Shown: piece by piece, positions 22,549 through 25,500 of the stretch | Layout: every line of letters begins with the position of its first letter | Position numbering within the stretch: position 1 is the first letter of the stretch | NCBI GenBank assembly: GCA_963770895.1 | Contig: CAVYRF010000001.1 | Coordinates: 1,568,001 to 1,632,000 of the forward strand | Direction of reading: 5' to 3' | DNA from: an uncultured Acidobacteriota bacterium | GTDB lineage: Bacteria > Acidobacteriota > Thermoanaerobaculia > Multivoradales > UBA5704 | Length of the DNA: 64,000 nucleotides | Notes under the pieces: model-generated | Database searches by the model: none | Seen by the model: the letters and a program-made list of their open reading frames with translations, nothing else | Told to the model about the DNA's origin: nothing | Made by a program: the position numbers and the translations under genes

Positions 22549-25500
22549 TCAGAGATGGCTGGAGAACCACCGCACGATGGCGGCGGTGGCGGTGACGTCG
22601 TTGTCCTGGTTGAGCAGCCCGTGCCCTTCGTCGGGAAAGACCAGAAGCTCGGCGGCGGCGCCGTGCCGCCGCTCCAGCGCGGCGGCCAGCTGGCGCGCCT
22701 CGTCGAGCGGCACGTTGGTGTCGTTGGCGCCGTGGACGATGAGGACCGGCGCCGTCACGCGGTCGATCTTGTGGATGGGCGACAGGCGGCGCAGCATCTC
22801 GCGGTCGCGCTCGGGATCGCCGTATTCCAGGCGCGAGATCGCCGCCATCCACGGCTCGGTGTTGGCGAGGAACGTTTCGAAGTTGACGATCCCCGAGAGG
22901 TTCACCCCCGCCGCGAACAGGTCCGGGTACTCCGCCAGCCCCGCCATGACCAGGAAGCCGCCGTAGGAGGCGCCCAGGATGCCCAGACGGCCCGGCGCCG
23001 CAAGGCCGCCGGCGAGCAGGTGGCGGGCGCAGGTTTCGACGTCGCGGATGGCGTCGAAGCGCAGCGGGCCGTCGTCGAGCGCGGCGAAGCGGCGGCCGAA
23101 GCCGGCCGAGCCGCGGATGTTCGGGGCGAAGACGCCGATGCCTTGGGCCAGCAGCGCCTGGTAGTCGCCGCGGAAGCTCGGCAGCTCCTGGCTCTCCGGT
23201 CCGCCGTGAAAGCTGATGACCATGGGGCCCGGGCCGGCCGCGGCAGGGTACAGCCAGCCGCTCAGCGGCAGGCCGTCGTGCGCCGGGAAGCACACCAGCC
23301 GCGGACGGTGGAGCGCCGCCAGGTCGATGCCCGGCGCCTGCGGCCAGGTGATCTGGCGCCAGCCGGCGGTGGCGCGATCGAGCACCCAGAGGCTGCTCGG
23401 CGCCGTCGGTCCGCCGGCGGCCACGACCAGGCGGCTGCCATCCGGAGAGAAAGCGACGTCGCCGGCTAGCTCGTCGGGCAGCGGCAACGGCCTGCGCGCA
23501 AGGTCGACCAGGTCGACGATCTCCAGCTCGCTGCGGCCGCCGGCGTTCCACACCAGCGCCGCCGCGGCGCCGTCGCGGCTGAGCGCGAACAGGTCGAGCT
23601 CGGCGTCGTCGCGCGCCGCCAGCAGCTCGAGCGGGCTGCTGCCGTCCGCCGCGATGCGCGCAAACGCGGCGCGGTCGCGGTCGCGGTTGGTGAGGCAGTA
23701 GACGGCGCCGCCGCGCGCCATCGCGCCGCGGCAGATGCCTGGCCGGTCGGTGGGCAGCAGCTGCCGCAGCAGGCCGCTGCGGCGATCGACCAGGGAGAGC
23801 CCCTCGACTCCGCGCAGCAGCATTTCGAACACCAGCACCGCGCCGTCCGCGCACAGCGCGTCGGCGGCGCAGGAGACGGTTTGGCCGCGCGCCAGCTTTT
23901 CCATCCGCTCGGCGGCGAGGTCGAAGAGGTAGGGGCTGAGGGCCGCTTCGCCCTGCCGGTTCGAGCCCAGCAGCAGGGCGCGCCCGTCGCCGCTCCAGCC
24001 GCGCAGCCAGTTGCTCTCCTGGCCGCCGTCGCTGATCCGGCGCAGCCCGGTGCCGTCGGAACGCAGGCAGTAGACCTGCTGCTGGAGGCCGCCGCCGGGA
24101 GCCGTGGCGACGGCGATGAGGTCCTCGCAGGGAGACCAGAAGGCTGCCGTCACGGGGTCCTCGAAGTCGCTCACCCGCGAGGGCCAGCCGCCGGCCGCCG
24201 CCACCTTCCACAGCTGCGGCGTGCCGCTCATGTTGGACAGGAAGGCGATGGTAGAGCCGTCGGGCGAAAACGTCGGCGCGGTGGCGCGGGTGACCGCGGC
24301 GAGCTGGCGCACCCGGCGGTCGAGCGGCGCGGCGGCACCCCGCGGGCTGACCGCGCCGGGGTGGCGCACCGGCCGCGCCGGCCGCACCGTCCGCCGCGGG
24401 GGGCGCGCGGCCGCCGGTTCTGGCTCGCCGGCGCGCTGGAACAGACGCGCCTGGGTCTCCACGGTAGGGTGCTGGAAGAGGTCCACCACGGCGAGCGGAC
24501 CGACGTCGCGGCCGAGCACGTGGTGGAGCCGCAGCAGCAGGAGCGAATGGCCGCCGACGTCGAAGAAGCTCTCGGCCAGGCCGACGCTCGGGATGCCCAG
24601 GACCTCGCACCAGAGCGCCGCGATCTTCGCCTCCAGGTGCGAGGCGGGCCGCGGGTGGCTGGCCGGCGCGCGCCGCTCGCCGGCGTCGCCGCCGTCGCCG
24701 GTTTCGCCGGTACCCGTGGCGCCGCCGAGCGGCGGGGCGGCGCCGGCCAGCGCCCGGCGATCCACCTTGCCGGCGGCGGTGAGCGGCAGGCGTGGCAGGC
24801 TCACGAAGGCGGCGGGCACCAGGTATCCGGGCAGGGTCGCCTGCAGAAAGGCGCGCAGCTCCGCCGGCGTGGGGGCCGGCTCGCCCGCGGCGACCACGTA
24901 GGCCACGAGCTGCAGTTCTGCCGCCTCGCCGCGCGCCGCGACGGCGGCGGCGCGCACCTGCTGGTGGCGTTCGAGCGCCGCCGCGATCTCGCCCGGCTCG
25001 ACGCGGAAGCCGCGGATCTTCACCTGCTGGTCGAGCCTGCCGAGGAACTCCAGCTGCAGGTCGGAGCGCAGGCGGGCGCGATCGCCGGTGCGATAGAGCC
25101 GCGCGCCGGGCGCCGGCGACAGCGGGTGGGGGACGAACCGCTCGGCGGTGAGATCGGGGTGTCCCAGGTAGCCGCGGGCCAGGCCGGCACCGCCCAGGCA
25201 GAGCTCGCCGGGCACGCTCACCGGCATGGGCTCCATCCGCCGCTCGCCGCGGTCGGCGCCGTGGGCGCCAGCGGCCGCGAGCACGTGGGCCTCGACGCCG
25301 GCGAGCGGCCTGCCGATCGGCACCGTCGCCGGCAGCTCGGCCGCCGCCGCCGCCGTCGCCGGCGGCGTGCCGGCGGGCTCCCAGGCCGTGGCTACCACCG
25401 TGGCCTCGGTGGGCCCGTAGGTGTTGATCAGCCGCGCGCCCGGCAGCGCCCGCCTGCCTGCCGCCAGGTCGCCCGTCAGGACGGTTTCGCCGCCCAGGAT

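Follow-up and report, generated by a model that had tools for sequence, protein, structure and literature searches.

A nonribosomal peptide synthetase with a covalently tethered S9 peptidase in the genome of an uncultured Acidobacteriota bacterium

The window analysed here is a stretch of 64,000 nucleotides from an uncultured Acidobacteriota bacterium of the lineage UBA5704 (GenBank assembly GCA_963770895.1, contig CAVYRF010000001.1, positions 1,568,001 to 1,632,000 of the forward strand). It carries a cluster of nonribosomal peptide synthetase (NRPS) genes together with one polyketide synthase (PKS) gene, and one of the synthetases, NRPS4 (22549..33762, minus strand), ends in an S9 peptidase fused to its last carrier domain, T3. 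The covalent attachment of an S9 peptidase to an NRPS/PKS line appears to be new, while the S9 family and a trimming logic like that of the zeamine enzyme Zmn22 are known. The fusion is very probably genuine. Our favoured overall explanation, to which we assign a probability of roughly 0.4, is that the S9 domain is an accessory of the assembly line, that the product is released by the thioesterase (TE) of the PKS and that the S9 domain trims the peptide.

NRPS4 is a 3737-aa (amino acid) open reading frame (ORF) that remains uninterrupted over all of its 3737 codons, with no stop codon or change of frame between the last carrier and the peptidase. The Pfam analysis of the protein showed Condensation, AMP-binding and PP-binding stretches, three of each, followed by PD40 (residues 3161-3185) and by Peptidase_S9 (PF00326, residues 3529-3737), which scored 146.8 bits (cut-off 22.6) at E 8.4e-43. 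Mapping by BLAST with the protein's own domains assigned residues 1-406 to a degenerate C-like domain lacking the HHxxxD motif, after which the order was A-T-C-A-T-C-A-T (C, condensation; A, adenylation; T, thiolation or carrier domain). The complete architecture is therefore C-like-A-T-C-A-T-C-A-T-linker-S9. The original prediction had described a single frame running from the last T domain through a linker into a beta-propeller and a hydrolase, and this was confirmed by the open frame, the Pfam matches and the motifs.

T3 (24430..24648, minus strand like all parts of NRPS4; residues ~3039-3111) bears its phosphopantetheine serine, Ser3073 (24544-24546), in the motif FFDVGGHSL (24541-24567). 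The end of T3 lies at residue 3112, and homology to stand-alone peptidases begins at residue 3147 (LDRRVRQL). The Arg/Pro linker described earlier is present between them, but it had to be corrected to a length of 34 aa and an Arg/Pro/Ala-rich composition (EPEPAAARPPRRTVRPARPVRHPGAVSPRGAAAP; residues 3113-3146, 24325..24426); it is predicted by the model to be disordered. The peptidase itself consists of an N-terminal helix with a beta-propeller (23248..24324, residues 3147-3505), as judged from Pfam PD40, the strands of the model and Foldseek, and of an alpha/beta-hydrolase matching Peptidase_S9 (22552..23247, residues 3506-3737), which is followed by the stop codon at 22549-22551. The hydrolase contains an HGGP motif (23197-23208, residues 3519-3522) and the codons of a catalytic triad, namely Ser3599 (22966-22968), Asp3681 (22720-22722) and His3714 (22621-22623). 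The Ser-Asp-His triad is intact, as predicted, and aligns with that of the structure 5l8s and of 26 relatives; the motifs GASYGG (22957-22974), ANDTNV (22711-22728) and EGHG (22618-22629), like FFDVGGHSL, were all found where they had been reported. No TE, reductase (R) or terminal C domain was detected on the NRPS4 protein by Pfam, and Thioesterase (PF00975) was not among the 11 families that matched it at E <=0.001. The claim that the peptidase stands in place of a TE or R domain thus holds for the NRPS4 protein but not for the assembly line, as the first gene of the operon encodes a KS-AT-T-TE protein (KS, ketosynthase; AT, acyltransferase).

The joint between T3 and the peptidase was examined at the level of DNA. 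The GC content at the third codon position was 0.90-0.98 in one frame from residue 2950 to about residue 3295 (60-codon windows). Public short-read contigs from two studies were identical to the window at 22557-22852, 23032-23245, 23519-23941, 23976-24238 and 24393-24537, and no insertion or deletion was reported where these contigs overlap it. For the region 24300-24450, where indels had been considered, this means that the flanks are identical and free of indels, but none of the listed contig pieces bridges positions 24239-24392, which contain the joint of the linker and S9. The best holder of the stretch among the public runs may be the source sample itself, and no run with RNA was listed for the stretch. 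Four 'skip' joints were seen in the contigs (22472>24681, 22697>25305, 22706>24727 and 23718>24369; one contig each) and were rejected as deletion variants. The contigs have 21-26 letters on the shorter side of the joint, two of the joints come from contigs of much higher depth, and another high-depth X3 contig matches just the conserved GGHSL stretch at 24542-24574; we read them as NRPS genes of other organisms in soil metagenomes.

The tails that follow terminal carriers in this genome are 24-53 aa long, and the stand-alone S9 relatives have ~18-55 aa ahead of their conserved start, where a start is seen. As just 34 aa separate T3 from the mature S9 domain, there is too little room for a docking tail, a stop codon, a ribosome site and a signal peptide, and the joint cannot be put down to the loss of a stop codon. 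An assembly or sequencing artefact, in which two genes or a chimeric join would be mistaken for a fusion, can appeal to the unbridged interval and to the possible identity of the best run with the source sample, but it is opposed by the high third-position GC in a single frame through the joint, by the short gap and by the identical contigs of two studies on either side, and we consider it highly improbable.

By sequence, the solved structure closest to the S9 module was the acylaminoacyl peptidase 5l8s (E 3.8e-43), followed by other S9 carboxypeptidases and acylaminoacyl peptidases. An AlphaFold2 model of T3-S9 was built from a 61-row alignment. Its residues 111-705 (NRPS4 ~3143-3737) reached predicted local distance difference test (pLDDT) values of 85-98 and formed an N-terminal helix, an all-beta propeller and an alpha/beta-hydrolase, the propeller blades being all-beta over residues 3160-3505 at pLDDT >90. 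Meanwhile, T3 and the linker had pLDDT values of 30-77, mostly <50, and the model is uninformative on the docking of T3. The top match in Foldseek was 5l8s_A (template modelling (TM) score 0.92 on the target, root-mean-square deviation 2.1, 596 columns); the Aeropyrum acylaminoacyl peptidase (ApAAP) came next (TM 0.86-0.87 for its chains), and prolyl oligopeptidases (POPs) and PCY1 ranked lower at TM ~0.72.

The characters of family S9 were all found in the module: a profile match above the cut-off, the order Ser-Asp-His with the serine in GxSxGG, and an N-terminal propeller. The HGGP oxyanion motif of the acylaminoacyl peptidases (S9C) is present as well; the accessible part of one source describes it as specific to these enzymes and as the seat of their oxyanion site (PMC9214879). 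The module thus resembles acylaminoacyl peptidases in its two-domain fold, HGGP, GxSxGG and the order of the triad. It differs from 5l8s and from the Aeropyrum pernix enzyme 1ve6 in that its identity to them is 21-22% and in that these are free proteins, whereas here the peptidase forms the C-terminus of a 3737-aa synthetase. All NCBIfam equivalogs stayed far under their cut-offs for the module (Dpp5, 99.7 against 900). With regard to the S9A macrocyclases, no match to Peptidase_S9_N (PF02897) was obtained, and POP, PCY1 and POPB were not the closest relatives. We conclude that the module is, as predicted from sequence and fold, an S9 peptidase of the acylaminoacyl-peptidase type without a named orthologue. 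It is neither a thioesterase-family domain, nor an S9A macrocyclase, nor a ClbP-type system.

To see how rare the fusion is, several collections of proteins and genomes were searched. A word-indexed search with the T3-S9 stretch against proteins of 2055-6540 aa gave 13 matches among 1882 scored candidates, and PF00326 was found solely in NRPS4 itself. The S9 part searched against proteins of 1083-3090 aa gave 18 matches, none of them with NRPS domains. A full HMMER search of 1.84 billion representatives yielded 54,263 matches at E <=0.001, and all of the best 150, which were listed, were at most 1241 aa long. Ten of these 150 were scanned with Pfam, nine picked for their extra length and P0016 as the closest relative of ordinary length. 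One metagenomic protein, P0036 (1210 aa), has the reverse order S9-A-T; its N-terminal peptidase has no signal peptide and shares 41% identity with the S9 domain of the window. When P0036 was used as a query, no other combination of S9 and adenylation domains appeared among the 120 of 477 matches listed. Against the genome contigs it found 80 loci that matched the adenylation part alone (residues ~590-1120), and no second S9-A-T.

The family genomes were scanned with the 705-aa T3-S9 query at E <=1e-120, which gave at least 52 matches in 51 of 92 genomes; that of the window alone extends over residues 1-705, and all the others start at residue 76 or later. In the phylum sample, which includes the unpublished genomes G243 and G115 (both ordinary stand-alone S9 cases), at least 64 of 401 genomes had a match, and the carrier part was covered by the window's own match alone. 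Both scans used a stricter first pass, and their counts are lower bounds. A 1595-aa open frame around an S9 domain in the genome G086 was considered as a further fusion and rejected, as it holds S9/PD40 domains only and is a long GC-rich frame. In the ESM Atlas, the nearest clusters were plain S9 peptidases (score 0.82), none of them with a carrier domain. Altogether, the T3-S9 fusion of the window remained the single case in a total of ~15 billion predicted proteins and 492 further genomes. Full-text searches of the literature found no description of an NRPS carrier fused to an S9 peptidase. The initial remark that no characterised fusion of this kind was known is borne out, since none described or sequenced elsewhere was found in the literature, the protein databases or the genomes of the family and phylum.

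We then asked where the fused S9 domain stands among its relatives. Within the genome, 12 S9-like matches were obtained, and a stand-alone housekeeping copy with 52% identity (C2:451477-453339) is the best of them. An S9 match at E <=1e-50 is present in all 92 family genomes, the best ones being stand-alone genes of 42-54% identity, and the closest stand-alone S9 in the nine same-genus and 82 other family genomes reaches 54% at best. In a 50-row tree, the fused S9 (end branch 0.74) lies outside a 27-row clade (26 different sequences) that unites the family orthologues with the genome's own copy (SH-aLRT 97). Forcing it beside the orthologues of its own genus costs 42 log-likelihood units (approximately unbiased test, p 0.063). 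A recent duplication within the lineage is disfavoured as its source. The flanks (1.5 kb to several kb) of 21 stand-alone S9 loci contained no match to GMC oxidoreductase, gluconate-dehydrogenase-subunit or GT4 genes, and no gene downstream of the fused copy recurs beside those stand-alone copies. No orthologue of the last module of NRPS4 was found among the 92 genomes of the family, the highest identity to A3-T3 there being 53%. The fused S9 retains 161 of 189 columns whose conservation among the 26 nearest stand-alone relatives is >=92%, while 19 more distant stand-alone relatives retain 114-145. As the domain is not the housekeeping copy, has no closer kin in the family, lies in an operon unmatched in the relatives and has kept its catalytic and structural columns, we regard it as a part of the pathway, and it probably belongs to the gene cluster.

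In the majority of the nearest stand-alone relatives, a hydrophobic stretch resembling a signal peptide (judged by eye) directly precedes the conserved LExxVxR start; the wider family is mixed in this respect, with 50 of 141 full-length proteins passing a crude test for a hydrophobic run. In NRPS4 the linker replaces this stretch, which places the fused S9 in the cytoplasm. An enzyme type that is normally exported thus appears, from its sequence, to be kept in the cytoplasm here.

Evidence on the path of the chain comes from the class of T3. For this, a profile of 14 carrier domains was run on the six-frame ORFs of the genome, and the neighbouring domains were labelled by BLAST with the window's own domains. 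The 281 carriers found are followed by a C domain (191), the protein end (37), a TE (25), an epimerization (E) domain (12), another element (10) or a KS (6); for 14 of the 37 protein-ending carriers, the next gene begins with a KS. When the 280 other carriers were ranked against T3 by phmmer, its 14 nearest comprised four that precede a KS in cis, nine that end a protein before a KS gene and one before a C-domain gene. KS-feeders therefore make up 13 of the 14 nearest carriers against 20 of 280 genome-wide (hypergeometric 1e-16, an exaggerated figure given the non-independence of related domains). None of the 191 carriers that precede a C domain is among these 14, and the first carrier followed by a TE appears at rank 17. 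A tree of 129 carriers gave the same five nearest neighbours. Outside this genome, T domains 45-49% identical to T3 (L028-L030) precede a KS and those 33-39% identical (L027, L031) precede a C domain; the same pattern of carriers was seen in P0003, P0004, P0010 and P0014. These comparisons assign T3 to the KS-feeding class of carriers.

A candidate recipient is encoded by the first gene of the operon. This PKS (59842..63738, minus strand) has the architecture KS-AT-T-TE, with the Cys/His/His residues of the KS intact and the motifs GHSLG in the AT, GGDSL in the T and GASFGG in the TE domain. It provides the sole KS and the sole thioesterase detected in the cluster (PF00975 at PKS residues 1030-1264). 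Its KS shares 54-61% identity with the other modular KS domains of the genome (23 rows at >=385 bits) and is one of the five among 24 modular KS domains that have no carrier within 700 nt upstream. The ordinary arrangement, with a KS-AT-TE gene right behind an NRPS gene that ends in a T domain, is found at another place in the genome. As an orphan KS-feeding T3 and an orphan KS-AT-T-TE occur in one operon, the line is read as NRPS1, 2, 3, 4 and then PKS-TE. We consider it likely that the line runs on to the PKS-TE and that S9 is not the main release step.

In the mechanism that we favour, T3 would hand the octapeptide of the four-protein, eight-module NRPS in trans to the KS-AT-T-TE protein; the PKS would add one malonyl unit, and its TE would release the product. 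The S9 domain, tethered by the flexible linker of 34 aa, would be located in the cytoplasm at the place where the finished peptide leaves the NRPS. There it would cut a peptide bond of the product or of a late intermediate and remove a pro-peptide or an N-acyl-amino acid, as in the case of Zmn22. We infer the hand-over from T3 to the KS, the predicted catalysis by S9 and its substrate. In the cytoplasm, S9 probably serves the line as an accessory hydrolase that either trims peptides like Zmn22 or edits thioesters; its specific role as a maturation enzyme cutting peptide bonds is proposed tentatively, by analogy.

Zmn22 of the zeamine pathway of Serratia plymuthica, predicted to be an acylpeptide hydrolase, lacks a signal sequence and hence acts in the cytoplasm; when it is deleted, the N-terminal pentapeptide is no longer cleaved from prezeamines, the products of an NRPS/PKS, according to the accessible part of PMC5811116. 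It is described, in the portion available of PMC3547906, as a 345-aa protein with a hydrolase domain of the prolyl-oligopeptidase family (acyl-aminoacyl peptidase) in a hybrid NRPS/PKS cluster. A hydrolase of this family, the lack of an export signal and the NRPS/PKS cluster are features that the S9 module shares with it (PMC5811116, in part). It differs in being a separate protein, whereas the S9 module here is a propeller and hydrolase of ~590 aa fused to a carrier. Between the two possibilities raised by the original prediction, a tethered maturation peptidase fits better in view of this precedent, and an unusual release or macrocyclisation domain is weakened by the PKS-TE and the KS-feeding T3, which make an ordinary thioesterase in the line very probable.

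The removal of N-acyl-Asn, suggested earlier by analogy with colibactin-type prodrugs, was considered separately. ClbP and XcnG, which perform it, are membrane-anchored and belong to a peptidase family other than S9. In systems of this type, module 1 makes N-acyl-D-Asn with a C-starter, an Asn A domain and an E domain. The likeness to them would lie in the logic of removing N-acyl-Asn, given the full C domain at the beginning of module 1 here and its specificity code, which looks Asn-like by eye. They are exported enzymes that cut N-acyl-D-Asn, as far as the accessible part of PMC5811116 describes them. In contrast, the order in NRPS1 is C-A-T-C, an E domain being absent behind T1, and the S9 domain has no signal peptide and is internal to a cytoplasmic synthetase.

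Several observations weigh against the favoured explanation. Among the 28 changed columns of the fused S9, five are lost basic residues: R3506P, R3527L (beside HGGP), R3717L, K3718N and R3724T (after the catalytic His). The position of R3527, five residues past HGGP, is Arg in 16 of 19 outgroup rows and in 5l8s, and the fused S9 has GASYGGF where its relatives have GGSYGGY. The loss of basic residues near the active site could point to a changed substrate, or to drift or decay. The end branch of T3 in the tree of 129 carriers is 0.76 against a median of 0.29, so that T3 may have drifted from its class, and the class itself is a correlation of sequence over ~78 residues among related domains, which is not proof of transfer. 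The PKS gene is not adjacent to NRPS4; it lies ~26 kb upstream (36 kb from stop to stop), at the start of the operon. S9 takes the place of the short basic tail of other T-ending proteins, and this might hinder the docking to the KS. The site right after a carrier is also exactly where a thioester-cleaving domain would be expected. With its single occurrence, the fusion offers no conservation between lineages as a sign that selection maintains it. Finally, Zmn22 with its 345 aa (PMC3547906) is too short for a propeller, and it is likened to S9 by its published description.

Two of the other explanations survive about equally well, and both are improbable. According to the first, S9 would be a cis-acting editing or shunt hydrolase that rids T3 of stalled or wrong acyl groups at the hand-over from the NRPS to the PKS, the job of a type II thioesterase, or that frees part of the chains as the unextended peptide acid. 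Its attachment to T3 and its intact triad would suit this role, and a trans hand-over to a KS encoded at a distance might stall often. Moreover, no stand-alone type II thioesterase or other alpha/beta-hydrolase was found among the scanned ORFs of >=250 aa, which comprise most of those in the window plus 20 kb upstream, but ORFs of <250 aa were outside the scan and a thioesterase of small size may have escaped it. The editing thioesterases that are known are small and have no propeller, whereas here a seven-bladed lid restricts the access of a protein-bound arm; the solitary occurrence of the fusion counts against this role as well.

According to the second, the fusion would be a neutral or mildly harmful accident, in which a deletion or rearrangement joined the 3' end of the NRPS4 gene to a neighbouring S9 gene and S9 would have no role in the pathway or a structural one. 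This is what a single occurrence in all the proteins and genomes searched would suggest, and the other S9-NRPS fusion found, P0036, is likewise a singleton. An intact triad would also be expected if the fusion were recent, and the 281 carriers of the genome and a 96%-identical duplicated module in the cluster speak for active recombination. However, the joint is clean, with the whole mature domain retained, the export signal gone and a linker of 34 aa. The S9 domain differs from the housekeeping copy, the closest stand-alone relative in the same-genus and other family genomes reaches no more than 54%, and the flanks of the stand-alone copies contain none of the genes found downstream of the fused one.

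It is still less likely that S9 is a true off-loading domain, in which Ser3599 would take the peptide from the T3 thioester and water or an internal nucleophile would resolve the acyl-enzyme under the propeller lid, in replacement of the PKS route or in competition with it. S9 would then represent a new class of off-loading domains that depend on a carrier protein and that release or macrocyclise the peptide; it would correspond, among NRPSs, to the POP-type macrocyclases of peptides that are ribosomally synthesized and then modified post-translationally (RiPPs), acting beside or instead of the PKS-TE. Its location directly after the last carrier of a protein without a TE, R or terminal C domain is in favour of this, as are the intact nucleophile elbow, HGGP motif and triad. 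The homologue 1ve6 is titled acylpeptide hydrolase/esterase in the PDB, PCY1 macrocyclase structures are among the fold matches (ranks 30-42), and the lost Arg and Lys residues of the active site would fit a substrate without a free carboxylate. On the other hand, T3 belongs by its nearest neighbours to the KS-feeding class, an intact KS-AT-T-TE without an upstream carrier of its own is encoded in the same operon, and no second T-S9 fusion was found in the searches of the protein databases, the family or the phylum. The module had no Pfam match to Thioesterase or Peptidase_S9_N, and the low pLDDT of T3 and the linker over most of their length leaves their docking to S9 unmodelled.

With type I thioesterases, the S9 module shares the alpha/beta-hydrolase fold, a Ser nucleophile and the place right after the last carrier. 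It differs from them in having no Pfam Thioesterase match and in a propeller of ~360 residues that caps the site, and a canonical TE is already present on the PKS. PCY1 and GmPOPB (S9A) likewise consist of a propeller and a hydrolase, and their acyl-enzyme chemistry could in principle cyclise a peptide (for GmPOPB, the accessible part of PMC5648786). However, the structural match to PCY1 is weaker (TM 0.71-0.72, 14-15% identity), and the POP-type RiPP macrocyclases act on ribosomal precursors with follower peptides. A C-terminal PF00326 match on a megasynthase is also known from fungal non-reducing PKSs (PMC9146135, in part). These are eukaryotic and not NRPSs, their match follows C-methyltransferase (CMeT), hydrolase or NAD domains, and no propeller is mentioned in the available portion of that source (PMC9146135).

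Should the S9 domain prove active, the line would be the first in which a full propeller-type peptidase is physically tethered to a carrier domain, and it could stand for a built-in maturation in cis that removes a pro-peptide or N-acyl-amino acid, for a novel editing device or for a novel chemistry of release. The T3-S9 didomain of ~700 aa is small enough for expression and assay. For genome mining, the case suggests that a synthetase seemingly without a thioesterase may pass its chain to a PKS-TE at the far end of the operon, and that the sequence class of the last carrier predicts such a hand-over. The case is weakened by its single occurrence in one uncultured-looking genome.

The genes of the cluster all lie on the minus strand and follow each other from position 63738 downward as PKS, glycosyltransferase, NRPS1, TauD, NRPS2, NRPS3 and NRPS4. 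The group-1 glycosyltransferase occupies ~58229-59840. NRPS1, the start of the line (47241..58550), has the order C(HHIVADLWSL)-A-T-C-A-T-C-A-T-C, and its true start is probably near 58230, past the stop codon of the glycosyltransferase. A stand-alone TauD-family dioxygenase (46199..47308) stands between NRPS1 and NRPS2. NRPS2 (39393..46595) is C-like-A-T-E-C-TauD with the fused dioxygenase at ~39396-40427, and NRPS3 (33767..39388) is C-like-A-T-E-C. Upstream of the PKS there are a divergent ABC exporter and then housekeeping genes; the genes of a GMC oxidoreductase and a glycosyltransferase lie downstream of NRPS4. The C-like starts of NRPS2 (44676-46595), NRPS3 (38234-39388) and NRPS4 (32545-33762) match Condensation at 51-64 bits and contain no HHxxxD.

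The specificity codes of the A domains were read by eye from an alignment. We take the codes of NRPS1-A1, NRPS3-A and NRPS4-A1 to be Asn-like, that of NRPS2-A to be Asp and that of NRPS1-A3 to be Tyr-like. A layout of siderophore beta-hydroxylases with an 'interface domain' was reportedly described by Reitz et al. in 2019. The fused and stand-alone TauD enzymes together with the C-like domains resemble this layout (PMC12230676, in the part available). In combination with the Asp/Asn-like codes, the TauD layout suggests beta-hydroxy-Asp/Asn residues in the product. Two adjoining genes of TonB-dependent receptors (3559-5643 and 5658-8150, both on the plus strand) lie ~14-19 kb from the end of NRPS4 and may be relevant to the question of whether the product serves as a siderophore.

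Module 1 of NRPS1 (55053-56766) and module 1 of NRPS4 (30838-32545) are nearly the same, their A domains being 96%, their T domains 98.7% and the next C domains 85% identical, which points to a recent duplication or gene conversion within the cluster. The genome of 8.16 Mb, with its 281 carrier domains and 24 modular KS domains, devotes an unusually large share to NRPS and PKS genes for its size; the search with A3-T3 gave hundreds of first-pass candidates in relatives of the family as well. In the window, the segment 8001-10000 has a GC content of 0.59 against 0.69-0.78 elsewhere, and a 560-aa ORF (8376-10058, plus strand) without a Pfam match (E <=1e-6) was found there. Downstream of the cluster, there are also a LanC-like gene (12170-13435, minus strand), a Kelch gene resembling galactose/glyoxal oxidases (15470-17035, plus strand) and an ORF resembling SCO1/SenC copper chaperones (16537-17682, plus strand).

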